IMG/VR virus record: IMGVR_UViG_3300005758_001464
Span: 1-46,964 of that record
Source of the DNA: a virus
Lineage: Duplodnaviria > Caudoviricetes
Direction: 5' to 3' (one strand)
Length of the DNA stretch: 46,964 nucleotides
Shown here: one piece after another, positions 3-20,382 of the stretch
Layout of the letters: each line of letters opens with the position of its first letter
How positions within the stretch are numbered: the stretch's first letter is position 1
Notes under the pieces: generated by a model
What the model saw: only the letters and a program-made list of their open reading frames with translations
What the model was told of the DNA's origin: nothing
Databases searched by the model: none
Made by a program: the position numbers and the translations under genes

Positions 3-138
3 CCATATTGAAACACACTCCCAAGGGGCTGTCATTAACCCACTTGTAACTTTGTACAACCTGTCGGGTAGCTACTTCCGTACTCTTGTACTCACCGTGA
101 AGCTGGCACGGCAATGACAGAAATGTGTTTCAATATGG
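3..138 (-). ncRNA. Putative structured ncRNA closed by a long terminal stem
   Basis: Perfect 15-bp inverted repeat ccatattgaaacaca (3-17) / tgtgtttcaatatgg (124-138); inner stems ctgtcatt/aatgacag, ccgtg/cacgg, gtacaa/ttgtac; extra G-U pairs favour the minus strand. Confidence 0.5.
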
Positions 139-211
139 CACACCCAACGGGATTCGAACCCGTCTTTACGCCTTGAAAGGGCGTTGTCCTAACCGGATAG
201 ACGATGGGTGC
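136..211 (-). tRNA. tRNA-Glu(TTC)
   Basis: Cloverleaf; anticodon arm acgcc-CTTTCAA-ggcgt; GTTCGAATC T-loop; encoded CCA. Confidence 0.95.
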
Positions 212-286
212 ATAAATTCTAAATTGTTAGAGAACGTTTACTACGATAAAAAGAATTATACATCCGATCCAATTTATCGTCAACTA

Positions 287-700
287 CTATTTTTGTTGTT
301 GTTTTTGCAACACATCCATCATCATTTTCTTTACTCGCAAGTTGGGTTGTCTATACTTTTCAGTATCAGTAAATCCCATAATGATGCCAACTTCAACTAC
401 TGCACCGCTACGGCAAATACCCGCATGGCAATGCACGACCACGTTAACGTGATTATCTAAAGCATGTTGCAACAGTCTTACCAACTCGGTTGCTTGTTCT
501 ACAGAAATTTTTGCTTCTTCAGGAAAGCCGTCTGCATCTTCAGCATCAAGGAATTCAAATTGATGAATCTCTTTGAAGTTAAATTTTGGTTTAGGAAACC
601 ACCCAGCTGGATCCATAATCTGAATCAACATACTATTTGGTCCTGCATCGTGATGCCATGCATGCGGGATATCACTGGCTGCTACATTTTCAATCCACAT
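287..700 (-). CDS. PTP/dual-specificity-type (CX5R) phosphatase
   Basis: VHCHAGICRS P-loop, upstream FLD acid loop, AGGAG RBS. Confidence 0.8.
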   Translation of the reverse strand: MWIENVAASDIPHAWHHDAGPNSMLIQIMDPAGWFPKPKFNFKEIHQFEFLDAEDADGFPEEAKISVEQATELVRLLQHALDNHVNVVVHCHAGICRSGAVVEVGIIMGFTDTEKYRQPNLRVKKMMMDVLQKQQQK

Positions 701-708
701 GATAACTC

Positions 709-1332
709 CTAGGGTATAAATTTCTCACACTCTTCCAAAGATGCGATGATTCGTAAATTTGGCATTTGATCAATAATAATTTTTAACTTTTTTTGTTGTA
801 CCTTTAATGCATGTGGATTTTTAGGATCCAAAAACACATCATGCTCTATTAAGTAGAAATCAGGAAAATAATTATGCATTTTTCCAGAATCATCTATCCA
901 CTTAATAGGAGTCTTGGGTCTTTCCCAAAGAATTCCCAATGCATCAAGCCGCTTGGCTAATGCCTCTTCCCACGAAGAATCTAACATTACGCAAGTGCCG
1001 TCGGGCTTTGTATATTCTCTAACGGATTTAACCAACCTTCGATGTGAGGAAGCTAATGCAGCATCACGAATTAATTCTATTGATTCGGGTGTATGTTTCT
1101 TATTTGTGAAAGTTCCAGGTTTGCCCTTCCAATACGAAGAAGGGGGTTCTTTGCCCTCATCTTTAGCTTTGATAAATTGGTTTCTAGGATTTTTAATCTG
1201 CTTCCTAGCATACTCCAATTTAGAAGAATATTCATTTCGTTTTGGATTTTTTTCGCACCATCTACTATGGTTGGCCTTATTCGCTGTTGATAATCCGATG
1301 AATTCTTTTTTGCAATGCTTGCATATAAACAT
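709..1332 (-). CDS. Free-standing putative homing endonuclease (Zn finger + NUMOD3-like + PD-(D/E)xK domain)
   Basis: CKHC..H...C; FTNKKHTPESIELIR; DSSWE...YFPDFYL...LDPK. Confidence 0.75.
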   Translation of the reverse strand: MFICKHCKKEFIGLSTANKANHSRWCEKNPKRNEYSSKLEYARKQIKNPRNQFIKAKDEGKEPPSSYWKGKPGTFTNKKHTPESIELIRDAALASSHRRLVKSVREYTKPDGTCVMLDSSWEEALAKRLDALGILWERPKTPIKWIDDSGKMHNYFPDFYLIEHDVFLDPKNPHALKVQQKKLKIIIDQMPNLRIIASLEECEKFIP

Positions 1333-1349
1333 AATGTCACCAGTGAAAG

Positions 1350-1426
1350 TGGCGCGACCGGAGGGACTCGAACCCCCAACAGTTCGGGTAGAAGCCGAAT
1401 ACTCTATCCAATTGAGTTACGGTCGC
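1350..1426 (-). tRNA. tRNA-Arg(TCT)
   Basis: ttcgg-CTTCTAC-ccgaa anticodon arm; GTTCGAGTC; CCA. Confidence 0.95.
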
Positions 1427-1433
1427 GTATATT

Positions 1434-1441
1434 TATTTATG
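1434..1441 (-). promoter_or_regulatory. T4-like late promoter (CATAAATA) for tRNA-Arg and the endonuclease
   Basis: One mismatch to TATAAATA, 7 nt before the tRNA 5' end. Confidence 0.55.
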
Positions 1442-1448
1442 CAAAAAC

Positions 1449-1483
1449 GAAGATTATTGCCCTATCCGTTGAACGAACGCCAG
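1449..1483 (-). pseudogene. 5' half of a tRNA (Arg-like) truncated in the anticodon loop
   Basis: CTGGCGT-TC-GTTC-AACGGATA-GGGC-A-ATAAT-CTTC: acceptor strand, D arm and 5' anticodon stem; no 3' half seen. Confidence 0.65.
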
Positions 1484-1487
1484 AAAT

Positions 1488-1682
1488 TTAAACTGTTAAC
1501 ACAGACCTGAGTGCTTCCAACTCACTTGAGGTGAGAAACAACTCAATGCGGTTCTGTTTGCCTTCTGGGTCTTTAGCCCAATCGTATGTTGTAAAAATAC
1601 GGACATGATATGTATCGGCAGGGAAATCTACCTTATGTGTTTCACAAAAAAGTTTGTAACCTTGTGCTTCAGTAATTAACAT
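1488..1682 (-). CDS. Hypothetical protein (about 64 aa)
   Basis: GAGGT RBS before ATG 1682; overlaps the 3' end of the HNH gene. Confidence 0.6.
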   Translation of the reverse strand: MLITEAQGYKLFCETHKVDFPADTYHVRIFTTYDWAKDPEGKQNRIELFLTSSELEALRSVLTV

Positions 1683-2232
1683 TGTTAATACCTCTAAGTA
1701 ATTTATTACGTTGTTTGTAAATCGCAGCATTCGATACTCCTAGCATTTCTTCTAGTTTCGTTATGCCGTGTTCTTCTAGTAATTGTAACAGATTAATACT
1801 ATTCCAGTCAACCTTTCTCCTATTTGAGGCCGCACATTTCGGGCTACAAAATTTATTTGATTTTGGTTTATCTGCTCCGCAATTCGGACAAGCATCATAT
1901 TCGACCTTGAGTTGCTTGTAATCAGCAAAAGATTCATCAAATTTAGTAAAAAATTTCGGAATCTCTCGCTTACCTGCATGAATCTCACTATGACAATTAT
2001 GGCATACTAAAATACATTTTTTTAATTCTTCTACTACTTTTTCCCATATTTTAGGATTAGCGCTAAGACTTCCAAAAGCAAGTTCCTTTTGTGTGGGGTC
2101 AATGTGATGGAATGCTAACGCTTCTTTACAAGTATCGTAACCACAGCATTGACATTTTCCGCCCATAGCTTCTACCATACGTTCCTTTGAGCGGTGGCGC
2201 CATTCTTTAACTCTATTCGATGACATTGACAT
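1669..2232 (-). CDS. HNH homing endonuclease with C-terminal Zn ribbon and HTH
   Basis: CQCCG...FHHID...CILVCHNCHSEIH; CPNC..FCSPKC; LGVSNAAIYK HTH. Confidence 0.85.
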   Translation of the reverse strand: MSMSSNRVKEWRHRSKERMVEAMGGKCQCCGYDTCKEALAFHHIDPTQKELAFGSLSANPKIWEKVVEELKKCILVCHNCHSEIHAGKREIPKFFTKFDESFADYKQLKVEYDACPNCGADKPKSNKFCSPKCAASNRRKVDWNSINLLQLLEEHGITKLEEMLGVSNAAIYKQRNKLLRGINNVNY

Positions 2233-2288
2233 ATATAACCTCTAACCTATATAAGTATTTATGCCTATATGTTGGTTAGAGGTTATAT
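2233..2288 (-). promoter_or_regulatory. RBS-sequestering hairpin with a late promoter (CATAAATA, 2256-2263) in its loop
   Basis: Perfect 15-bp inverted repeat 2233-2247 / 2274-2288 containing the AGAGG RBS, ending 1 nt before the HNH ATG. Confidence 0.8.
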
Positions 2289-2293
2289 TCTAA

Positions 2294-2372
2294 TGGCTCC
2301 GCATCTGAGATTCGAACTCAGCTAACCAGTGATTAACAGTCACGCCCATGCGCCTAGCTCGGGTTCTGCGGA
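2294..2372 (-). tRNA. tRNA-Asn(GTT), atypical D arm
   Basis: gtga-CTGTTAA-tcac; GTTCGAATC; CCA. Confidence 0.85.
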
Positions 2373-2378
2373 ATTGAA

Positions 2379-2455
2379 TGGTGCTGCTTGTCGGATTCGA
2401 ACTGACGACCTATCGCTTACAAGGCGATTGCTCTGGCCAACTGAGCTAAAGCAGC
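2379..2455 (-). tRNA. tRNA-Thr(TGT)
   Basis: atcgc-CTTGTAA-gcgat; canonical D and T arms; CCA. Confidence 0.95.
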
Positions 2456-2476
2456 ATATAACTTTATTTAAACAAC

Positions 2477-2505
2477 ATAATATCACAGAGAATTTTTTTT
2501 GTCAA
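2477..2505 (-). promoter_or_regulatory. Sigma70-type promoter
   Basis: TTGACA-17 nt-TATTAT with TGn extension, upstream of tRNA-Thr. Confidence 0.7.
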
Positions 2506-2525
2506 GCCTTCCCTGTGATATTTTT

Positions 2526-3086
2526 CTACGACAGTAAAATTCTACTATGCTTCGGAAGTCCTTGTTTCAAATACTCCATTTGATCAGCTAGAATTGTACG
2601 GTGTTGCAAAATCATATTTTCGTAGTGATTCGGAACATAGGGAGTATATAGTAACTCCATGCCCGATTCTTTAAGGGTTTTATCACTCTTTCGACTATTA
2701 CAGTCTTTACAGGCGGTGACTACATTCATCCAGGTATTTGCACCGCCCTTACTTTTAGGCATGATATGATCACGGCTTAACTGATTGTGGTTGTCAAAGT
2801 GCTCTCCGCAATATGCGCAAATATTTCTATCACGACCAAACAATGTTTTATTAGTCAATGCCACCATGCCGTGTCGATTTGGATCGAATCCGTGTCCCTT
2901 AATTGCAATAATACTAGGAGTTTCAATATAGCTTAATGTTCCATCATTTTGAATACCACCGCGATAACGTGCAACAATCTCACCCATACTCCATGCTACT
3001 GCATCTTTGGCATGATATGTGATTGCGTCATCATAGGAAATCCATTGTCTGGGGATTCCGCTGATATCAAGTGCTAGAACTGCCAT
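2526..3086 (-). CDS. HNH endonuclease (McrA-like)
   Basis: RDRNICAYCG...SRDHIMPKSKGG...NVVTACKDCNSRK; GGAGG RBS before ATG 3086. Confidence 0.9.
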   Translation of the reverse strand: MAVLALDISGIPRQWISYDDAITYHAKDAVAWSMGEIVARYRGGIQNDGTLSYIETPSIIAIKGHGFDPNRHGMVALTNKTLFGRDRNICAYCGEHFDNHNQLSRDHIMPKSKGGANTWMNVVTACKDCNSRKSDKTLKESGMELLYTPYVPNHYENMILQHRTILADQMEYLKQGLPKHSRILLS

Positions 3087-3133
3087 TTCATCCTCCATTT
3101 ACTAAAAGTTCTATGTCTATTTAATGCCTAGTG

Positions 3134-3208
3134 TGGTGAGTCCTGCAGGAATCGAACCTGCATCAATGCAATCGGAATGCAGTATCTTATCCATTAGACT
3201 AAAGACTC
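3134..3208 (-). tRNA. tRNA-Arg(CCG)
   Basis: tgca-TTCCGAT-tgca; GTTCGATTC; CCA. Confidence 0.9.
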
Positions 3209-3245
3209 GGGGTATTATAACAAATAATTTATTTTATGTCAATAT

Positions 3246-3321
3246 TGGTGCATCCTCCTGGTTACGCTCCAGGCTCCCGTGCTCTTCAGGCACATGCTTT
3301 CACTAGATTAGCTTAGGATGC
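3246..3321 (-). tRNA. tRNA-Phe(GAA), non-canonical T-loop
   Basis: gtgc-CTGAAGA-gcac; perfect acceptor stem gcatcct/aggatgc; T-loop AGCGTAA; CCA. Confidence 0.85.
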
Positions 3322-3330
3322 TTTAATTAT

Positions 3331-3404
3331 TGGTGCTCCCAACTGGTAACGATCCAGTGTTTCTACATTACCAATGTAGTGTAATACCTTTATACTATAG
3401 GAGC
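3331..3404 (-). tRNA. tRNA-Thr(GGT)
   Basis: ctaca-TTGGTAA-tgtag; T-loop ATCGTTA; CCA. Confidence 0.88.
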
Positions 3405-3405
3405 T

Positions 3406-3481
3406 TGGGGTGTCATACCGGTATCGATCCGGTACTTCCAGTTTCACAGACTAGTGTGCAGGCCACTACACTAATGACACC
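3406..3481 (-). tRNA. tRNA-His(GTG) with encoded G-1
   Basis: ctagt-CTGTGAA-actgg; G-1:C73 pair; CCA. Confidence 0.92.
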
Positions 3482-3521
3482 ATTGAAATAATAAATGAGT
3501 ATTGTTTGCTGCTTCTAGAAT

Positions 3522-3599
3522 TGGTCTCCGTAGCAAGATTCGAACTTGCGACCACAAGTCCCCCAGACTTGTACGCTAACCAGACTGCGCTATACGGAG
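3522..3599 (-). tRNA. tRNA-Pro(GGG)
   Basis: caagt-CTGGGGG-acttg; GTTCGAATC; CCA. Confidence 0.92.
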
Positions 3600-3606
3600 T
3601 TAAATT

Positions 3607-3682
3607 TGGTGAATCAAATCGGAATTGAGCCGGCCGCAGATTGCTTGCAAAGCAGACTCGCCCCCTTGGTACATGTTGTTCC
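3607..3682 (-). pseudogene. Degenerate tRNA-Ala(TGC)
   Basis: tgc-TTTGCAA-gca loop and ACCA end, but mismatches in acceptor, anticodon and T stems; T-loop CTCAATT. Confidence 0.55.
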
Positions 3683-3689
3683 AGAGCAT

Positions 3690-3765
3690 TGGTAGTAGAG
3701 GTGAGACTCGAACTCACGATAAACACCGTATGAAGGTGGCGCATTAGCCGCTATGCTACTCTACT
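3690..3765 (-). tRNA. tRNA-CAT (elongator Met or lysidine Ile2)
   Basis: cacc-TTCATAC-ggtg; GTTCGAGTC; CCA; lacks the initiator GGG/CCC anticodon stem. Confidence 0.88.
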
Positions 3766-3778
3766 GTATTGCATTAAA

Positions 3779-4336
3779 TTATTTGATTTTTATGCTATTG
3801 TATACTTCTTCGACATTGTAATTTAACCAACCCAATCGAAAGAATTTTCTAACTTGATTGGGATTAGATTTCAGAACGCTATGTATACTGCCTGTACTCA
3901 ATAGCCAAGAATCATTTTTGTTAGCACTGAATGATCCTACATATTTTAGATACTTAGGGTCGTATGATTTTATCGGTGATTCTACCCATTCTCCCGATTC
4001 GGTCAATCTTGATAGACTATCAATTGCTACCGAAGTGTCAACCAAGTCCCAAAAAAAAGTAACAGCGTTCCCCGGTTCGATGTAATAATTTAATACAGTT
4101 TGTATTAGTTCAGAGTGCGGATGGCTACCTTCACCAGATATTTCTACGTAAGAAAATACGTCGGGTTTTATTGTAAACTCAGCTACTGAATTAAGTATTT
4201 CAATAAAATAGTCTTCATCTATTAGTGACCATGCTCGAAAGGTTTCACCATACCCCTCTAGTAAAGGGCCACCGGTGATTCGAGTAATATCAATCACTGG
4301 AAATTTAATATCAATTTTTTTAAATCGTGGGTACAT
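3779..4336 (-). CDS. Hypothetical DSBH/cupin-like protein, paralog of 18422-18976
   Basis: HPH...LNYYI...SWLL..GSIHSV...R pattern shared with 18422-18976. Confidence 0.6.
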   Translation of the reverse strand: MYPRFKKIDIKFPVIDITRITGGPLLEGYGETFRAWSLIDEDYFIEILNSVAEFTIKPDVFSYVEISGEGSHPHSELIQTVLNYYIEPGNAVTFFWDLVDTSVAIDSLSRLTESGEWVESPIKSYDPKYLKYVGSFSANKNDSWLLSTGSIHSVLKSNPNQVRKFFRLGWLNYNVEEVYNSIKIK

Positions 4337-4390
4337 ATTCTATACTTATATGTCAAACCATATAAGTTTTTTATTCTTTTTGCATCAAAC

Positions 4391-4467
4391 TGGCACGTCC
4401 TGAGCGATTCGAACGCCCGACCCCCTGGTTCGTAGCCAAGTACTCTATCCATCTGAGCTAAGGACGC
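4391..4467 (-). tRNA. tRNA-Arg(ACG)
   Basis: cttgg-CTACGAA-ccagg; canonical arms; CCA. Confidence 0.95.
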
Positions 4468-4478
4468 ATTATTAAATT

Positions 4479-4552
4479 TGGCAGGGGATGTAAGAATCGA
4501 ACTTACGACCTCGGAATCAAAATCCGGTGTGATACCATTTCACTAATCCCCA
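4479..4552 (-). tRNA. tRNA-Gln(TTG)
   Basis: cgga-TTTTGAT-tccg; GTTCGATTC; CCA. Confidence 0.93.
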
Positions 4553-4561
4553 ATTGTAAAT

Positions 4562-4860
4562 TACGCACGTGAGCTATCCGTCATGGGGATAGTGATTGTT
4601 TAGCACATGCGTATTATTCTAAAGCACACTATGACGGAGTTGAACCGCCCGTCTAAAAGGATCCCATTTAACACCCCGACTGTACCTTATATTCACTAAG
4701 TATGCTTTAGAATAATGCGAGTTTCCTCGCATTATGTTAGGATCTTGCCCTAACCAGTAGTCTTACTTTATGCGTTACCTCCGCAAATTTCATGTATACT
4801 GTCCGCCCGTTCGAAGCATGTTTACAGTGCGCTTCAGGACCTCGTTTCCTATCCCACACT
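4562..4860 (-). ncRNA. Putative structured ncRNA region at the head of the tRNA array
   Basis: Hairpins 4562-4613, 4611-4718 (14-bp perfect core), 4712-4735 (GAAA tetraloop on minus), about 4736-4755; no ORF of 60 aa or more. Confidence 0.5.
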
Positions 4861-4994: not shown

Positions 4995-5024
4995 ATTTTA
5001 ACTTACTTTCTTCTAACTTGTCAA
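4995..5024 (-). promoter_or_regulatory. Sigma70-type promoter for the tRNA array
   Basis: TTGACA-18 nt-TAAAAT. Confidence 0.55.
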
Positions 5025-5047: not shown

Positions 5048-5079
5048 AAAAAGCCCTGGAGATTTTAGTTTCCAGGGCT
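5048..5079 (-). terminator. Intrinsic terminator
   Basis: agccctgga-10 nt loop-tccagggct followed by TTTTGTT on minus. Confidence 0.8.
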
Positions 5080-5106
5080 CGTATAAACTATATGATGATG
5101 ACTTGT

Positions 5107-5247
5107 TTATTCCGTCCCCCGGTGACCCCTTTGATTCTCGTCATTGCCGCGGATACTTGTTGTATATACTGGTGCAAAAGACGATATGGATAACACTGAC
5201 CATAGTCCTTTCTGTTGCATAGTATGTTTACAAGTAACGTTCATCAT
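5107..5247 (-). CDS. 46-aa putative leader peptide (not in ORF track)
   Basis: MMNVTCKHTMQQKGLWSVLSISSFAPVYTTSIRGNDENQRGHRGTE*; AATAAATA motif 7 nt upstream; terminator about 27 nt downstream. Confidence 0.5.
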   Translation of the reverse strand: MMNVTCKHTMQQKGLWSVLSISSFAPVYTTSIRGNDENQRGHRGTE

Positions 5248-5370
5248 AGTAATTTATTTATTCCTGGTTTAAAAAAAGTATATTTTTAGTGTGGTTTTTG
5301 CTAATTTCTAATGTCCTCATTCTATCTTAGTCGAAGGTAAATGTCAAATACTTGTTTACCCATTTTTTTC

Positions 5371-6681: not shown

Positions 6682-7260
6682 ATGACCGAAATAACTTCAG
6701 ACAACAACAACTATTTTTTAGTACACAAAGATTCATTCAGTAGTGGACAAATAGATAGTAAGCTATGGCTATGCGAACAACTTGAATTATTAAACATAGA
6801 AAGTAACGAAATTAATATATACGGCGGTTGGTATGGGCTAACTGCATTTTTACTGTTGAGTAGAAAAAAATTTAAAGTAAAAAAAATAAGAAGTTATGAC
6901 ATTGACCCAAATTGCGAATTAATTGCTGATATGATTAATCAAAATTGGGTATGGAAGGGCTGGCAATTTAAGGCTGAAACCAAAGATTGTAATACTATAT
7001 CTTCTACTGCGGATTTGATTATAAACACCTCCACTGAACATTTTAGCAGTATGTTATGGTGGGAGAACATATCACCGGGTACTATAGTAGTGTTGCAAGG
7101 AAATAATATGAAGCACCATGAAGATCATTATTCTTGCGTAGATAGTTTAGAACAGTTTGTAAGTAAGTTTCCAGTAAGTGAATTACTATATAAAGGAGAA
7201 ATGACTTTCAAATATGATACTTGGGGATTTTCTAGATACATGATCATAGGGATAAAATGA
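6682..7260 (+). CDS. Class I SAM-dependent methyltransferase-like protein
   Basis: IYGGWYG motif I, SYDID, DLIINTSTEH. Confidence 0.65.
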   Translation: MTEITSDNNNYFLVHKDSFSSGQIDSKLWLCEQLELLNIESNEINIYGGWYGLTAFLLLSRKKFKVKKIRSYDIDPNCELIADMINQNWVWKGWQFKAETKDCNTISSTADLIINTSTEHFSSMLWWENISPGTIVVLQGNNMKHHEDHYSCVDSLEQFVSKFPVSELLYKGEMTFKYDTWGFSRYMIIGIK

Positions 7261-7871
7261 TATACACATATAATAATAATTCTGTTTCTATTACTCTACC
7301 CCAACAAAAGCGCATTGGTGTTTTGGTGAGTGGTGGTATCGATAGTGCTATTCTTTATTATTTGCTTCTAAAAGAAAAACAAATCACCAATAGTGATCAC
7401 ATTATATACCCTATAGTTATGTTTAGAAAAGAGGGCTCCAAATATTTTGCAAGACCCATAGTAAAAAAAATACATGAAATTTTCAATATCTCGCTTAACG
7501 CAAAAAGATTCGGAAATAGTGATTTACCGGAAGAGAAACAAATAGAATCCGCGGTAATAGAGTCTATGGAAGTGCTTAGATTAGATACAGTGTATATAGG
7601 CGTAATCAAAAATAGACCCGAACACATGATAGGACTAGAGCATATTCCTGTTCCAAAAACCCCATTAATACAAACACCCTTCATCGATGTTGAGAAAGAT
7701 TTTATAATAAAATTATATCATGATATGGGCGTCGAACATTTATTAGAATATACACATAGTTGCGACAAAGACGAGTTAATTCACTGCGGCAATTGTAATG
7801 GGTGCAGAGAGCGAAAGTGGGGGTTTTCACGCAACGGATTTACCGACCTTAAAACAACGAAGTTAGAATAA
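7257..7871 (+). CDS. QueC-like PP-loop ATPase
   Basis: VLVSGGIDS PP-loop; THSC...HCGNCNGCRER Zn site. Confidence 0.75.
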   Translation: MIYTYNNNSVSITLPQQKRIGVLVSGGIDSAILYYLLLKEKQITNSDHIIYPIVMFRKEGSKYFARPIVKKIHEIFNISLNAKRFGNSDLPEEKQIESAVIESMEVLRLDTVYIGVIKNRPEHMIGLEHIPVPKTPLIQTPFIDVEKDFIIKLYHDMGVEHLLEYTHSCDKDELIHCGNCNGCRERKWGFSRNGFTDLKTTKLE

Positions 7872-8441: not shown

Positions 8442-9194
8442 ATGGCCATAACACACAACGTGCAAGTAAGAAGTTTACAGGCAATAAACCATGGTTTAGC
8501 TATCGTTGGACTTTTTTATGCCATAGTAAACGCTGAATGGTGGCTTCTTTTACTGTCACTGTGCGTATATTGGACTATTGGAATTTTAGGCATAAACATT
8601 GGCTTTCATAGGTTACTAAGTCATCGATCTTTTAATACTTACAAACCTATTTACTATGTTTTAACTGTATTAGGCACACTGACTGCTATGGGCAGCTCGC
8701 TTTCATGGGTAGCTGTTCATAGACAGCATCATAGATACAGCGATACTGATTTGGATCCACACAGCCCTCATAAATTTGGTGCAATTAAAACTTGGTTAGG
8801 ATTTTGGGGAGATATCAAAATAGATATAAGAAACTGCAACGATCTTAGAAAAGATTCGTTTCATAAATTCTTACACAAAAAATATATAATAATTCAATTA
8901 CTATATGTTTCTATTTTGGGTGCTATAGATCCTTTATTAATAATTTTTGTTTATGCTATTCCATCAGTACTAGTATTTCATTCGGCAGGCGCATTTGATG
9001 TAATTGCACACATGCATGGTTATAGAAGTTATGAAACCAAAGACCGTAGTTGCAACAGTTGGATAGCAAATATAATTACCATGGGGGAAGGATGGCATAA
9101 CAATCATCATGCTCGTCCAGGTAATTGGAGCAATTGGGAAAAGTGGTGGGAAGTTGATATCCCCTCGTTGATTATAAGAATAATTAAAAAATGA
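8442..9194 (+). CDS. Membrane fatty-acyl desaturase 1 (delta-9/DesC-like)
   Basis: His boxes HRLLSH, HRQHH, GEGWHNNHH; TM segments; CATAAATA at 8408. Confidence 0.93.
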   Translation: MAITHNVQVRSLQAINHGLAIVGLFYAIVNAEWWLLLLSLCVYWTIGILGINIGFHRLLSHRSFNTYKPIYYVLTVLGTLTAMGSSLSWVAVHRQHHRYSDTDLDPHSPHKFGAIKTWLGFWGDIKIDIRNCNDLRKDSFHKFLHKKYIIIQLLYVSILGAIDPLLIIFVYAIPSVLVFHSAGAFDVIAHMHGYRSYETKDRSCNSWIANIITMGEGWHNNHHARPGNWSNWEKWWEVDIPSLIIRIIKK

Positions 9195-9955
9195 AAAAAT
9201 TTGGTCATAATTTTTGGTTAGTGTTTTTACCATTTCATGTGTTAGCCGTTGTAGCCTTATTCTATATTTGGGACCATTGGGTATCGTTACTAGTACTTTG
9301 GTTTTTAATCGGTGTAATCGGTAATGGTGTAGCAGCCCATAGATATTTTGCCCATGGACAGTTTGAAACTTGGACTCCTGTTAGATGGGTATTAGGTATC
9401 CTAGCAACACTAGCAGCTATAGGTCCTTTAACTTATTGGACTATACAACATAAACTTCATCACTTGCAATCAGACGATCCTTTGGATCCTCATAGCCCAA
9501 ACCAGAATAGTGCATGGAAAGTTTTTTATGCTTGGACTTTTCCGCAAGGTAGCAATGAAGAATATTATCTGCAACATCGATGGGCGAAAAAGATAGCCGT
9601 TCAACAGATGCGAGATCCATTCTTTAAATTTTTTCATCAGCATCATTATAAAATAATTTACTTGTTCTGCATATTATTATTTCTTGTCGATCCTGTTTTA
9701 TTATTAATGTATTGTTTGGCGTATGCGATTGATTTTTTTAGATTAGGTGCGGTGAATTATTGGTGTCATAGAAGTGGATACCGGACATATGAAACTCAAG
9801 ATCAAAGTCGTAACAATGTTTGGTTAGGTTGGTTAGGTATGGGTTTTGGCTGGCATAACACACATCATGCTCATCCTGGAAGATTAGTGCTACAAGATCA
9901 CTGGTGGGAAATCGATATAGAAGGGTATATAGGATGGTTGATAAAAACAAAATAG
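9191..9955 (+). CDS. Membrane fatty-acyl desaturase 2
   Basis: His boxes HRYFAH, HKLHH, GFGWHNTHH. Confidence 0.92.
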   Translation: MKKFGHNFWLVFLPFHVLAVVALFYIWDHWVSLLVLWFLIGVIGNGVAAHRYFAHGQFETWTPVRWVLGILATLAAIGPLTYWTIQHKLHHLQSDDPLDPHSPNQNSAWKVFYAWTFPQGSNEEYYLQHRWAKKIAVQQMRDPFFKFFHQHHYKIIYLFCILLFLVDPVLLLMYCLAYAIDFFRLGAVNYWCHRSGYRTYETQDQSRNNVWLGWLGMGFGWHNTHHAHPGRLVLQDHWWEIDIEGYIGWLIKTK

Positions 9956-14468: not shown

Positions 14469-15929
14469 ATGCACACGGAATTTTTACTTTTAACAAATGT
14501 AGCAAGTCCATTATGGCAAAGAGCGATTGGTGCTTACCAAGTTGCAGACCATTGCAGAAAATTCGGTATTAACTGTCAAGTTTTAGATTTTACTGACTTA
14601 TTTAAGATTGAAGAATTAGAAACGATCATTCTTTCTTTTGTGAATGATCAAACATTAGCCATTGGAATTTCTACTACCTTTTATTATAATCAAGACACTA
14701 AAGGAAAATTTATTAGTGCTAAAAGACATTTCAATCAAATACTCCCCAACAATGTTAGAAATTTACTATATAAAATTAAAAATCAATTTCCTAATTTAAA
14801 AATAATTGGAGGCGGTGCTAACAGTTATCAAATCGAAGAAGATGATCTATTTGACGTTGTGTTTCACGGTTATAGTGAACAAAGTGTAGCAGAATATCTA
14901 CAAGAGTTACAAGGAAAAAGATTAAAAAGAATTTGGCCAAAAAAGAACAATCAAATCATCATCGATGGAAAATCTGCGCATTTTGATATTACCACATTAG
15001 ATCACCGTTGGAGTAAAAATGATTTTATTCTTCCCAGTGAAACATTACCTATTGAAATCAGCAGAGGATGTATCTTTAAATGTAATTTTTGTTCATATCC
15101 ACTTAACGGCAAAAAGAAATTTGACTATCTACGGGATCCTGAATTAATCAGAGAAGAATTAATTTACAATTACGAAAATTTTGGTACTACAAATTATTTT
15201 TTTACTGATGATACTTTTAACGACTCTACTATGAAAATAGAGTTGTTACATAAAGCAATAACAAGCTTGCCATTCAAAATCAAGTTCGTTACTTATTTGA
15301 GACTTGATCTGTTAAATGCCCATAGAGAACAGATACCTTTACTTAAAGAAATGGGTTTAGGTTCTTGTTTCTTTGGAATAGAAACTTTAAATCACGCTAG
15401 TGGTAAAGCTATAGGTAAAGGCATGAACCCTGAACTAGTAAAAAAGTTTTTGCTAGAACTTTATTACGATCATTGGAATGCAGAGATACCATTTACGTGT
15501 AGCTTTATTATCGGGTTGCCCGGGGAGACCATTGAGTCTGTTAGGGCAACTCATGCTTGGTGCAAAACCACTCCGTTTAACGACTTATGGTTCCCATTGT
15601 TTATCAAAGCTAAAAGCCATTATAAAAGCGAATTTGACTCTAACTATGAAAAATACGGTTATCAGCTAGATAGTGAAGGAAATTGGTACACCGACATTAT
15701 GACTTATCAACAAGCATTAGAGGTAGCAGAAGAATTTAACGGCATAGGGCTATATAATGAAAATACCCCCAGCAGCTGGTTACTGTTTAGTTTGTTAAGT
15801 TATGGATTTACTATTAATGAAATTAAGGATACTAAAATCCAAGAACTTCATTGGCCTAGTATCCTTTTGAAAAAGTTTAAACTGTTTAAACAATACAAAG
15901 ATTTAGTTTTTAAAGCGATTCAAAAATAG
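14469..15929 (+). CDS. B12-binding-domain radical SAM enzyme
   Basis: KIIGGG N-terminal domain; EISRGCIFKCNFC; DDTFN; GIET; FIIGLPGET; start taken at ATG 14469. Confidence 0.9.
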   Translation: MHTEFLLLTNVASPLWQRAIGAYQVADHCRKFGINCQVLDFTDLFKIEELETIILSFVNDQTLAIGISTTFYYNQDTKGKFISAKRHFNQILPNNVRNLLYKIKNQFPNLKIIGGGANSYQIEEDDLFDVVFHGYSEQSVAEYLQELQGKRLKRIWPKKNNQIIIDGKSAHFDITTLDHRWSKNDFILPSETLPIEISRGCIFKCNFCSYPLNGKKKFDYLRDPELIREELIYNYENFGTTNYFFTDDTFNDSTMKIELLHKAITSLPFKIKFVTYLRLDLLNAHREQIPLLKEMGLGSCFFGIETLNHASGKAIGKGMNPELVKKFLLELYYDHWNAEIPFTCSFIIGLPGETIESVRATHAWCKTTPFNDLWFPLFIKAKSHYKSEFDSNYEKYGYQLDSEGNWYTDIMTYQQALEVAEEFNGIGLYNENTPSSWLLFSLLSYGFTINEIKDTKIQELHWPSILLKKFKLFKQYKDLVFKAIQK

Positions 15930-17085
15930 TAATATTGGTTCTACCACCAAAACCAAAACTAGCTTTCATAAAAATATTACCGTTCAATTTAGTTTGTTCG
16001 GTTATAATTCTAGCATCATCAGATAATGGTTCAGTTAGATTATAGTTAGGATGCAGGAATCCATTTTTTACAGCCTCAAGTCCATACGCACTTTCTATTA
16101 GACCACATGCGCTCATCGTGTGTCCTATATATCCTTTAAAAGAAACTATAGGAATATCAATGTCTTCGAATGCTTTTTGAAAAACGTCAACTTCAATATC
16201 ATCGCCGACAAGTGTGCTTGTGGCATGAGCATTAAAGAACGCTATATCTTTGGCAGTCAGGTTAGCCTGACTTAATGCTTGGTTTATTAGTTTTAATTGA
16301 TTCTCGCAAGTTTTGTCATGTGCAGTCATACTGGTAACTTTAGCTCCGCTGACAATGGATCTTATCTTTGCTTTCGGAGTTAAATTATTTCTTACCAATG
16401 TTTCTTCGTCGCACACAAACCAAAGTGTACCACCTTCACCTTGTAAAAAACCGTCTCTTTTTTTATCAAAGGGAGCGCAGTTTCCTCCGTTTAGAGTAGA
16501 AATAGCACTGGTGCATTGCCAATGATATTGCATTACTGGAAGTATCGGCATGTCTGCATTTCCCACTAAGGCAGCAGATGTTTGACCCGTTTGAATAAGC
16601 ATAACTGCAAGATGCAGATTAAACATACTGCTAGTACATGCGCCATTTAAACTAGTATTAATTCCTTCTAATTTAATTTTACCTGCAACCAACGCCGATA
16701 GTAAATCGTGATTTCCTTGAAACAATTTAGTAGGACTGAATCTTGTTGCATTCGACTCAAATGCAGCCATAAATTCATCACGAATTTTTAAACCCGAAGA
16801 AAATGAGCCAAACACTACCGCAGAATCTTTAGGAATATGGGATTCTACCTCATATTTAGAACTAATTTCATTGCACAAATCTACCGTTATTTTGTATGTG
16901 CTATAATCTGAATCGACATAACTCATATGATATCCTTTTTTGCAAAGGACATTTGAATATTCTTCATGATTATATCTTAGCGGCAGCGTCGCGCCCGGAG
17001 TATTGGGCATGTTTAGGTAGTTAGCAGATACGTCGGTACCTAAACAGTCTTTAACCAAATAATCTACGATATAAACGTCTTTCAT
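15910..17085 (-). CDS. Beta-ketoacyl-ACP synthase (FabF/FabB-like, divergent)
   Basis: GACTSS catalytic Cys, NAHATST and KGYIGHT His, PFD..RDGF..GEG, SFGFGG. Confidence 0.93.
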   Translation of the reverse strand: MKDVYIVDYLVKDCLGTDVSANYLNMPNTPGATLPLRYNHEEYSNVLCKKGYHMSYVDSDYSTYKITVDLCNEISSKYEVESHIPKDSAVVFGSFSSGLKIRDEFMAAFESNATRFSPTKLFQGNHDLLSALVAGKIKLEGINTSLNGACTSSMFNLHLAVMLIQTGQTSAALVGNADMPILPVMQYHWQCTSAISTLNGGNCAPFDKKRDGFLQGEGGTLWFVCDEETLVRNNLTPKAKIRSIVSGAKVTSMTAHDKTCENQLKLINQALSQANLTAKDIAFFNAHATSTLVGDDIEVDVFQKAFEDIDIPIVSFKGYIGHTMSACGLIESAYGLEAVKNGFLHPNYNLTEPLSDDARIITEQTKLNGNIFMKASFGFGGRTNITIFESL

Positions 17086-17445
17086 TTATTTCTTTTTAAT
17101 TTTAGTAGGATCTTGGCTATCAGTGATATACCCAACCAAATCAGACCAAACAAGAAGTTTTGCAATTTCTTGATCATCAATCGTTGCGCCAAATTCTTCT
17201 TCAACTTGAATGATAAGTTCCAATATATCAATACTGTCTATTTCTAGATTTTTTTTCTTAAGATCGGCTAGTTCTTCGGGTAATCCCTCTATTTCTGTAT
17301 TATTGACTAGTCGAAGATCCTTAATGGATAAGTCCGGCGGCAAAGGATATTCAAGTTCTAGATTCAAATATTCATTTATCATTGAAATGAATTTTTTTTC
17401 AACCTGTTCTTTGGTAAGTGGGGTCCAATTTTCTGTAGTACTCAT
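17086..17445 (-). CDS. Acyl carrier protein 1 (extended)
   Basis: EIDSIDILELIIQVEEEFG; acidic; AGGAGA RBS. Confidence 0.88.
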   Translation of the reverse strand: MSTTENWTPLTKEQVEKKFISMINEYLNLELEYPLPPDLSIKDLRLVNNTEIEGLPEELADLKKKNLEIDSIDILELIIQVEEEFGATIDDQEIAKLLVWSDLVGYITDSQDPTKIKKK

Positions 17446-17468
17446 GTTTTCTCCTGTGCGTATATTTA

Positions 17469-17921
17469 TTACACTCCGGCTAGAGCTTTTAATTTAGCTT
17501 GCGCAGCAACTATTCCGTTTACCTCAATAGTAGATTCAAACTCAAAAATATTTCTAGCATTTCTAGTCATTGTGCTAAAAATATGCAATTGATCTCCCGG
17601 ATATATAACTTTCCTAAATTTTACCTGATCCGCATCTGAAAATAATATACCAAAACCTTTGAAGTATTTTGCGATCTCCGGATTATCTTCAACATATTTA
17701 AAGGCTAATATAGTACTAGCCTGAGCCATAGACTCAATCATCATTACTCCCGGCATGATAGGATTTTCAGGAAAATGCCCTTGAGCATATGGTTCATTTG
17801 CTGTAAAATTTTTAATTGCCTCTATGGATCGGTGATCATATTGCACCACTGAATCTATCATCAGAAAAGGGTATCGATGTGGCAATATTTCCAGTATTTG
17901 TTTTATAGAAAGTGATTTCAT
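17469..17921 (-). CDS. fabZ: 3-hydroxyacyl-ACP dehydratase
   Basis: LPHRYPFLMID, GHFP..PIMPGV, ESMAQ, KFRKVIYPGD. Confidence 0.95.
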   Translation of the reverse strand: MKSLSIKQILEILPHRYPFLMIDSVVQYDHRSIEAIKNFTANEPYAQGHFPENPIMPGVMMIESMAQASTILAFKYVEDNPEIAKYFKGFGILFSDADQVKFRKVIYPGDQLHIFSTMTRNARNIFEFESTIEVNGIVAAQAKLKALAGV

Positions 17922-18012
17922 GTTATGTATTATATAAACAACAACAGGATTAATCAATAATAATTTTACCCATAAAATTAACTTTAGTAAAGATCCGGTA
18001 CATAAATACTTG

Positions 18013-18381
18013 ATGATTATTGGACACGGAATAGATATAGTATCGCTAGAAAGATTTTATCAAATACCCATTGGTAGATTAGATAAGATGGCTAATAGAA
18101 TACTCACTGAACAAGAATTATCTAATTATAAAACAATAAGCAATCCAAAAAAGCCCGTATATATAGCAAAGATTTGGGCTAGTAAAGAAGCTATTTCCAA
18201 AGCTATAGGTACCGGTATACAAGAAAACACTACTTGGAAAAGTATGAATATACAAAATAATGCACTAGGCAAGCCGGAAGTAAAATTAGAAATACCCAAT
18301 GCTTATTGTTTACTCAGCATTAGTCACGAAAAAGAATATTTGGTAGCCAGTGCAATTCTGTGTTCTAGTGACCAAACTTAA
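18013..18381 (+). CDS. acpS: Holo-ACP synthase (phosphopantetheinyl transferase)
   Basis: GHGIDIV, WASKEAISKA.GTG, GKP, LSISHE; CATAAATA at 18001. Confidence 0.93.
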   Translation: MIIGHGIDIVSLERFYQIPIGRLDKMANRILTEQELSNYKTISNPKKPVYIAKIWASKEAISKAIGTGIQENTTWKSMNIQNNALGKPEVKLEIPNAYCLLSISHEKEYLVASAILCSSDQT

Positions 18382-19057: not shown

Positions 19058-19612
19058 ATGCGAGCCGTAACGTGGATTCCCAATTCTGACAAAGATTTAG
19101 ATCATTTGTTTAATGAACTTCGTAAAATTCAACACAACAACACTAATCATCCGCTGTGGCAAAATTATAATAAAGAACATTTTTATTCTGAATGTTCGGC
19201 ACTGAGTATATCATTTGACGAACATGATGTTCCTATATTTTGTAGTAGTATCTTGAAAAGAGCTTGTTGGCCTAATCAAGTGTATAGAATAATCAATCGG
19301 CTTTGGAAAGTATCGCCGATATCCGAACCTTTAAAAAACTCTCATCCGGCATTGGGGCCCATGCTGTATTCTCAGTTGGATTGGCTTGAAAAAAACACTA
19401 ACTGTGAGCTAGTTTTTATAAGCAGAGAAACGCCTAATTGGCAACGTTGGACTATTAAACAACTGGCTAAAAATTATAATTTGCATTTTGGGGTTGACGA
19501 TTATAAATACTTAACTTGCAGTAATTCAACTGACGATAGTTGTTGGCAACATATCATATATCAAGGGAACATAAAATTATTAACTCACTGGCAGAAAAAA
19601 TTAGACAACTAA
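19058..19612 (+). CDS. Hypothetical protein, possible acyltransferase (GNAT-like)
   Basis: 184-aa ORF; YRIINRLW and LVFISRE segments; fold guess is weak. Confidence 0.5.
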   Translation: MRAVTWIPNSDKDLDHLFNELRKIQHNNTNHPLWQNYNKEHFYSECSALSISFDEHDVPIFCSSILKRACWPNQVYRIINRLWKVSPISEPLKNSHPALGPMLYSQLDWLEKNTNCELVFISRETPNWQRWTIKQLAKNYNLHFGVDDYKYLTCSNSTDDSCWQHIIYQGNIKLLTHWQKKLDN

Positions 19613-20382
19613 TATTTTGGGCTCCTATATGGGGAGGACTACTACCCATACACATTTTTGGAGTTTATGCGATTATTATGTTATTCTCAAATAACAGTCC
19701 TGATTATTGGTGGATTTACTCTATCATAGGATATGTATGCATAATGATGTTAGGGTTAAGTGCCTGTTATCATAGGCTTCTCAGTCATCGTAGTTTTACT
19801 ACGGGAGTATGGCGCAAACGATTTATACTATGGTGCGCAATAATGAGTGGACAAGGTAGTCCAATCAGTTGGGTTCTAGTCCACAGGGGATATCATCATA
19901 GATTATCTGATACTGATAAAGATCCGCATAGCCCCAAACATGGTTTTTGGCATTCATATGTAGGTTGGATGTTTAAAATAAAGCCAGATACATTAAGCCC
20001 TAAATATGTAGTAGACTTAATGCGCGATCAAGACGTAGTTTTTGCTCATACTCACTATTTAAAGATTTTTTGGATAAGTCATGCTCTTCTAATTTTACTG
20101 AATCCCACAGTGTGGATATGGGGTGTTATGTTTCCTTCGTTAATTGCGTTTCATAGCTATGCATTGAACACTAGTGTCAATCATTGGACGAAATTAGGAT
20201 ACAAAAATTATGAAACAAAAGATGACAGTATGAACGTAGTTTGGTTATGGCCTTTAATTTTAGGTGAAGCTTGGCATAACAATCATCATGGTCTTGCTAG
20301 CAGCAGCAACTTTGGTGGAAAGCGTTGGTGGGAATTAGATCCCACAAACTGGCTTATTTGGTTGATACGTTCTGATCGATAA
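19540..20382 (+). CDS. Membrane fatty-acyl desaturase 3 (start codon uncertain)
   Basis: HRLLSH, HRGYHH (HX3HH), GEAWHNNHH. Confidence 0.92.
   Translation: MLATYHISREHKIINSLAEKIRQLIFWAPIWGGLLPIHIFGVYAIIMLFSNNSPDYWWIYSIIGYVCIMMLGLSACYHRLLSHRSFTTGVWRKRFILWCAIMSGQGSPISWVLVHRGYHHRLSDTDKDPHSPKHGFWHSYVGWMFKIKPDTLSPKYVVDLMRDQDVVFAHTHYLKIFWISHALLILLNPTVWIWGVMFPSLIAFHSYALNTSVNHWTKLGYKNYETKDDSMNVVWLWPLILGEAWHNNHHGLASSSNFGGKRWWELDPTNWLIWLIRSDR

Follow-up and report, generated by a model that had tools for sequence, protein, structure and literature searches.

Why phages carry tRNA genes is a long-standing question, and the locus described here raises a narrower one: does a short open reading frame (ORF) followed by an intrinsic terminator, placed ahead of a phage tRNA array, decide when the array is transcribed, and what would such a switch sense? 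We analyzed one contig of 46,964 bases (hereafter the window), the source of which we take to be a large T4-like phage from our reading of its ribonucleotide-reductase-like and long repeat-protein ORFs. Some contigs of its relatives in IMG/VR are about 350 kb long. The original prediction, made from the window alone, had proposed that the ORF and the terminator form a translation-sensing attenuator responding to arginine codons.

A leader ORF and terminator ahead of tRNA arrays

The tRNA array of the window is incomplete, because the contig stops within it, at base 1 (Table 1). ARAGORN called 10 tRNAs on the minus strand, from 4552 down to the contig end, and three of them are tRNA-Arg, the number given in the original prediction; the additional tRNA found by Rfam has no ARAGORN call, and its fold puts GAA (Phe) in the anticodon loop. 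Ahead of the array, the AATAAATA promoter-like motif, the 46-codon ORF and a strong terminator were all present as described, the terminator hairpin (-17.4 kcal/mol, z -3.2) beginning 26 nt past the ORF stop. The element had been placed directly upstream of the array. It does precede the first tRNA, but 496 nt separate the two, counted from the U run, and between them lie another promoter, an ORF of 53 codons and a pair of structured RNAs. One of these RNAs, at the array head, shows double changes at 14 of 20 predicted pairs in 23 sequences and near-invariant motifs GnAACGnG and AYGGGCGGAC, and it has no Rfam match at E up to 1. The other has close copies in L001 and L002 only and presumably resembles bacterial Y-RNA or tRNA mimics.

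As relatives we used the best 80 of 200 viral loci, fetched via the HNH gene inside the array. The leader-terminator element was found by nhmmer in 59 of these 80 loci (E < 1; 57 at E < 0.001), and in all 59, as in the window, the ORF of 34-58 codons was intact and followed by a terminator. With the element present in 59 of the 80 loci and the ORF intact in every one of them, its conservation goes beyond chance. Counting the window, none of 60 elements has a tRNA upstream (the upstream DNA having a median of 6 kb), and the first tRNA lies 260-1,537 nt past the element. Of the 21 loci lacking an nhmmer match, 18 have their first tRNA less than 700 bases from the locus start and for this reason are probably truncated ahead of the leader. 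L040, without a match, likewise begins inside the array; L051, missed by the DNA search, has a divergent leader with all 20 amino acids and a long antiterminator; L041 has room upstream, yet no leader ahead of its first tRNA. A profile search with the leader peptide gave 171 further short homologues, of which 120 were used below. P0002 and P0005 were dropped as repeat artefacts.

Other searches placed the element outside known families. No Pfam or NCBIfam family fits the leader, and positions 5048-5347 have no Rfam match at E up to 1, so that a T-box or other curated leader RNA is not indicated. A single-peptide word search with the leader gave no match, a degenerate pattern of the leader start hit 0 viral contigs, and no relatives were found for the small downstream ORF. 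Using blastn, neither the window's element nor a long-type element matched any of 50,697 annotated phage records, and two tblastn matches to annotated phage records were chance. The nearest isolate HNH loci (Ralstonia phage RsoM2USA and Salicola phage SCTP-2) had no leader match within 10-12 kb. A pattern scan from the conserved Ser-Ile-Arg-Gly (SIRG) stretch of the leader to the terminator returned mostly chance hits, true members making up 12 of 120 loci. In public RNA runs, at most 6% of words were present; in the four runs examined, the pieces listed were mainly tRNAs of other organisms, with scattered low-depth leader fragments in one run only, and these data are uninformative on expression.

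Several neighboring features were recorded alongside. A tyrosine/dual-specificity phosphatase-like ORF lies within the array (287-700, minus strand), and a QueC-like ORF lies upstream on the opposite strand (7257-7871, plus strand). By our reading, the window presumably also encodes a cluster of fatty-acid-synthesis-like proteins (ketoacyl synthase, acyl carrier, dehydratase and phosphopantetheinyl transferase; 15910-18381) and three desaturase-like proteins (8442-9955 and 19540-20382). The array of one relative contains a tRNA with a TTA anticodon, ochre suppressor-like (L024:4297-4369).

Table 1. Coordinates of the features discussed (window positions unless a locus is named).
Feature	Position	Strand	Remarks
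Upstream sigma70-like promoter	5319-5347	-	TTGACA-17-TAGAAT; 11/12 match
Possible second antiterminator, upstream CCAGG	5263-5267	-	predicted to pair with terminator 5' arm when start region is free
AATAAATA motif	5255-5262	-	likely T4-type late promoter; labeled by likeness to T4 TATAAATA
Leader ORF	5107-5247	-	46 codons; all 20 amino acids; 39 different codons
Most conserved leader stretch, SIRG	5146-5157	-	Ser-Ile-Arg-Gly
Predicted antiterminator, 5' strand	5105-5122	-	ORF end through stop codon
Predicted antiterminator, 3' strand	5072-5088	-	overlaps terminator 5' arm
Intrinsic terminator	5048-5080	-	10-bp hairpin (5051-5080), 10-nt loop, U run (5048-5052)
Downstream sigma70-like promoter	4995-5024	-	11/12 match; past terminator, would bypass switch
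Conserved structured non-coding RNA	4713-4850	-	head of array; about 140 nt; 48 loci among L001-L086
Second structured RNA	4612-4712	-	14-bp closing stem and T-loop-like hairpin
tRNA array	136-4552	-	10 ARAGORN genes and one Rfam-only tRNA
Rfam-only tRNA	3249-3321	-	Rfam 39.9 bits; no ARAGORN call
HNH gene	2526-3098	-	within tRNA array
Betaproteobacterial megaplasmid leaders	L082:4888-5175; L083:4817-5055; L084:5248-5505; L085:6765-7015		

Terminator and predicted antiterminator

The terminator, which a simple scanner did not list because of its 10-nt loop, is well conserved: its cells are 96.6% paired with 15 double changes among 36 short-type sequences, and a T-rich tail follows in 51 of 54 elements. 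The original prediction had noted a 6-bp alternative helix between the end of the ORF and the terminator 5' arm. This pairing is found (CCGGGG at 5117-5122 with CCCUGG at 5072-5077), but it is only the core of a helix of 14 bp that also includes 5113-5114/5080-5081 and 5105-5110/5083-5088, and whose energy (-16.1 kcal/mol) is near that of the terminator. In the same 36 sequences, pairing of the antiterminator reaches 90.8%, three of its pairs account for 21 double changes, and all six slid controls are exceeded, although two of five covariation measures fail to beat shuffles; the counts for both helices are of cells in related sequences rather than of independent events. The GC core of the antiterminator stays paired though its reading frame shifts between lineages, and in some variants (L018, L060, L078, L079 and L067) all three strands have changed together. 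From folding and covariation, the antiterminator and the intrinsic terminator are predicted to be mutually exclusive.

In RNA ending before the terminator 3' arm, the terminator arm was sequestered at more than 0.9 in 46 of 53 elements (L080 left out) and in 51 of 424 shuffles. Assuming a ribosome footprint of 16 nt from the P-site codon and ignoring upstream RNA, we predict that sequestration persists as long as the P-site is about nine or more codons short of the stop and is lost over the final eight. With no ribosome, the arm is predicted still to be captured in the pre-3'-arm RNA (mean 0.95-0.99); folding found no 1:2 protector helix that would give termination without translation, and the SIRG region was rejected as a pairing partner of the terminator arm (mean 0.00). 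The full-length RNA without a ribosome favors the terminator (mean 0.69-0.84), and read-through under such conditions would therefore depend on folding kinetics.

The upstream CCAGG may take part in additional pairings. Its cells pair with the terminator arm in 95% of cases, one pair having double changes in three sequences, and a long-range helix joining CCAGG and the start codon with the post-stop region is 89% paired with 11 double changes. This helix is less strongly supported than the terminator and antiterminator; it could act as a second antiterminator or as a means to silence the spent leader.

These structures suggest a mechanism in which the leader ORF would be translated and its translation coupled to transcription. 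Until the 3' arm of the terminator has been transcribed, its 5' arm would be captured by the ORF end, except when a ribosome occupies the last eight or so codons. As no protector helix of the SIRG region competes, folding predicts read-through whenever the ribosome stalls within codons 1-37 or the ORF goes untranslated, making the switch fail-open; a ribosome lagging at almost any codon would allow transcription to continue through the tRNA array. The original prediction had pointed to related phages as the place to look for the same layout and covarying antiterminator pairs, and both were seen there. Its central idea of a translation-coupled attenuator before the array is supported, with the layout conserved, terminator and antiterminator covarying and the polarity of the ribosome-position model right. 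That some translation-coupled switch is real and conserved here, likely as a functional attenuator, seems to us very probable on the sequence evidence.

What the leader may sense

The leader peptides are unusually complete. Of 50 unique peptides, 44 contain the full set of 20 amino acids, four contain 19, one 18 and one 16; among equal-length stretches (43-58 aa) of phage proteins, 3-12% are complete. Among the 120 further homologues, which have a mean pairwise identity of 54%, 114 have all 20, whereas permuting columns among sequences gave 46.0 +/- 4.4 (maximum 61 in 2,000 permutations), a null lowered somewhat by alignment slips. Within these homologues, the single Cys and Trp shift position instead of being lost. 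For Cys, 94 homologues have the usual site alone, 20 have a different site alone (spread over seven other columns), 1 has both and 5 have none; the corresponding numbers for Trp are 96, 16, 7 and 1. A quick tree puts the relocations of Trp in two distinct clades and those of Cys in several.

The codons are similarly diverse. At most 41 distinct codons would be possible in the window leader, which reaches its 39 with, among others, five different Ser and four different Gly codons, and 42 of 52 leaders have more distinct codons than uniform choice among synonyms would give, compared with 25 of 300 control stretches. The predicted sensing zone contains all 20 amino acids in 39 of 53 elements and 19 in 13. 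No control-codon cluster for one or few amino acids was found in the leaders, the commonest residue being Ser (10.6%), and Ala is not enriched (6.5% in leaders vs. 5.1% in phage genes). The conserved property is the full set of 20 amino acids together with many different codons. We consider it probable that the element is a pan-codon, fail-open transcription attenuator that gates the phage tRNA array in a manner resembling the whiB7 uORF. We infer that its natural trigger would be tRNA depletion or cleavage, that is, the loss of any charged tRNA species through starvation, host tRNA decay or defense nucleases.

Not all of the conservation follows from this. The SIRG arginine is kept in 52 of 53 leaders, with a codon that is always CGN, and K, H, W, F, T, S, I, R and G positions are at least 90% conserved (alignment A1); the conservation of SIRG, KH and F lies outside what the pan-codon model accounts for. 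Such constraint, and the location of SIRG just inside the sensing zone, would suit an arrest peptide, in which a single metabolite, an antibiotic or a missing factor would cause the nascent chain to stall the ribosome near SIRG, as in the sensors SecM, TnaC and SpeFL. However, Trp and Cys change position, the length varies from 43 to 58, L051 has no SIRG, and an arrest peptide predicts neither the complete amino-acid set nor the synonymous spread, and we find this explanation unlikely.

The element could also be a small late gene or a structured small RNA with an ordinary terminator, the array being driven by the downstream promoter and the alternative helix being incidental or limiting leader translation only. 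The whole leader RNA folds with z -3.8, the predicted helix between start codon and post-stop region is compatible with the terminator, and a sigma70-like site of at least 10/12 is found downstream of the terminator in 44 of 54 elements. That the antiterminator covaries, even where its reading frame shifts between lineages, argues against this, as do the 10 of 54 elements with no such promoter and an all-20 composition with moving residues that a folded protein would not need. We regard it as quite unlikely.

The arginine signal of the original prediction fared worse. Hungry Arg codons would cause read-through supplying the three tRNA-Arg, and the codons CGC, AGG and CGG are indeed in the ORF (codons 33, 40 and 43); the SIRG arginine is held to CGN although AGA is the phage's commonest Arg codon, and arrays often have tRNA-Arg(ACG) in first or second place. 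On the other hand, CGG is part of the antiterminator strand, and a ribosome waiting there would therefore favor termination, while AGG lies at or past the edge of the sensing zone. Among 50 leaders, AGG occurs in 50% and CGG in 22%; arginine, with 1-4 residues per leader, makes up 5.7% of codons, and the divergent leader of L051 is without the SIRG arginine. The arrays of relatives span nearly all amino acids, the 28 loci with at least 12 kb downstream having 22-49 tRNAs each and 17 or more ARAGORN labels. Arginine as the specific signal is thus very improbable. Least credible is a general gauge of coupling or ribosome load, with overall ribosome speed or availability counting and codon identity secondary: it fits the fail-open geometry and the predicted capture of the terminator arm by CCAGG when the start region is empty, but it does not require one of every amino acid and overlaps the pan-codon attenuator, which already includes that response.

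Promoters, related designs and implications

A sigma70-like site of at least 10/12 lies within 140 nt upstream in 53 of 54 elements, compared with 113 of 1,500 random windows; the one in our window was missed by the original prediction. The AATAAATA motif, which we take to be a late promoter by its likeness to T4 TATAAATA, would likely yield a leader mRNA that is itself nearly leaderless. In 52 of 54 elements, TAAATA stands 7-8 nt ahead of the leader ATG, and it is concentrated at 4-5 nt from the start of 149 of 882 other phage ORFs, where 0.67 would be expected per distance, a placement that we would expect of a T4-type late promoter. As a side observation, TAAATA at 4-5 nt before the ATG suggests that leaderless late mRNAs are widespread in the window phage and in L001-L080.

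The sigma70-like promoter that the original prediction had reported past the terminator is present, and further promoter-like sites lie within the window's array at 3242, 2505 and 283. With these downstream and in-array promoters, the switch cannot be the sole control of the array. TAAATA, on the other hand, is absent between the terminator and the first tRNA in 46 of 54 elements, and the next one in the window is at 3118, past seven ARAGORN tRNAs; with no other TAAATA before the first tRNA, late-type transcription of the first block would have to pass the switch. The influence of the switch would be greatest on transcripts that start at the TAAATA late-type promoter, since the sigma70-like promoter past the terminator could supply the array on its own. 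Given the arrangement of these sites, we regard the switch as a booster, perhaps one of late transcription.

A similar layout was seen in bacteria. Megaplasmids of Burkholderia, Methylibium, Variovorax and Polaromonas carry four tRNA arrays (19-37 tRNAs) that include the same HNH gene, and in each of them an ORF, picked by eye, and a terminator precede the first tRNA. Two of these leaders contain all 20 amino acids (background 2-3%) and two contain 19 (background 11-20%), all four have more codons than background, and a predicted antiterminator captures the terminator arm at 0.78-0.99. As none matches the phage leader peptide profile, the likeness, on four cases, appears to be one of design and does not imply homology. 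L084 and L085 share a GCAGTGATCGCGCTGCC...CTTTAA motif after the leader, and the leader of an Undibacterium array has 18 amino acids only. A Burkholderiaceae MAG has a similar leader and terminator before an HNH gene with no tRNAs called nearby (L207:8801-9145); in this leader and that of L082, it is the codons for Ser-Ile-Arg that form pairs with the terminator arm. When 80 bacterial HNH loci were scanned generically for an ORF plus terminator, the output was mostly noise, since starts were chosen to maximize the amino-acid count and most loci have no tRNAs, and it was set aside as evidence. L287-L289 contributed nothing of use.

The logic of the proposed switch is that of the leader attenuators of amino-acid operons (trpL, hisL, leuL, thrL and pheL/pheM), with which it shares a short intact leader ORF, alternative antiterminator and terminator, and termination favored when the ribosome reaches the ORF end. 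Unlike those, the phage leader has no run of codons for a single amino acid and no predicted 1:2 protector helix, making it fail-open rather than super-attenuating, and it precedes non-coding RNAs and tRNA genes, not biosynthetic or synthetase genes for the sensed amino acid. What is known is thus the attenuator logic; what differs here is the control codons, the protector helix and the target genes.

The closest counterpart in composition is the whiB7/wblC uORF, likewise broad and combined with a terminator and antiterminator. As reported in PMC10274678, translation of the mycobacterial whiB7 uORF chooses between intrinsic terminator and antiterminator and responds to shortage of many amino acids as set by its composition; removing its single Trp codon reduced Trp sensing, and the Mycobacterium smegmatis uORF has every amino acid but Cys. 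The same paper describes whiB7 uORFs as often lacking several amino acids, enriched in Ala and controlling an autoregulated transcription factor, whereas the phage leaders, of 43-58 codons, keep all 20 with moving single residues and control tRNA genes. Family scans showed no sequence relationship to the whiB7 uORF, and none of seven downstream ORFs scanned against Pfam matched WhiB. The Anabaena trn L-array is a long, mobile array of tRNA genes associated with an HNH gene, and translational stress induces it; its control is ascribed to promoter repeats and the repressor TrcR, unlike the phage array with its leader (PMC8421152 and PMC10272220), and the main text of PMC8421152 contains neither "leader" nor "attenuat". 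Escherichia coli toiL resembles the phage leader in that one uORF reports stalls at many positions; according to PMC12121999, it represses translation of a toxin-antitoxin transcript and terminates that transcript through Rho, with no intrinsic-terminator switch. A leader-controlled tRNA array was not found in the literature searched, of which the supplementary tables of predicted uORFs and RNA motifs could contain the element.

A broader reading is possible but speculative, and on balance we doubt it: a universal codon-sampling, fail-open attenuator, selected to contain every amino acid and a maximum of codons, through which jumbo phages would sense any tRNA loss, including cleavage by defense nucleases, and answer with late replacement tRNAs, the same design on Betaproteobacterial megaplasmids making it a general controller of mobile arrays. 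Recent papers tie phage tRNAs to evading tRNA-cutting defenses (PMC11464382, PMC11555353 and PMC10264068). If the element is indeed a codon-by-codon switch on tRNA supply, phage tRNAs would be an on-demand rescue kit, and the insult that opens a 250-nt leader reporter would name the selective pressure behind them. In that case the leader would double as a compact, naturally occurring sensor of how healthy decoding is overall, and its all-20 signature would offer a route to such switches without sequence similarity.
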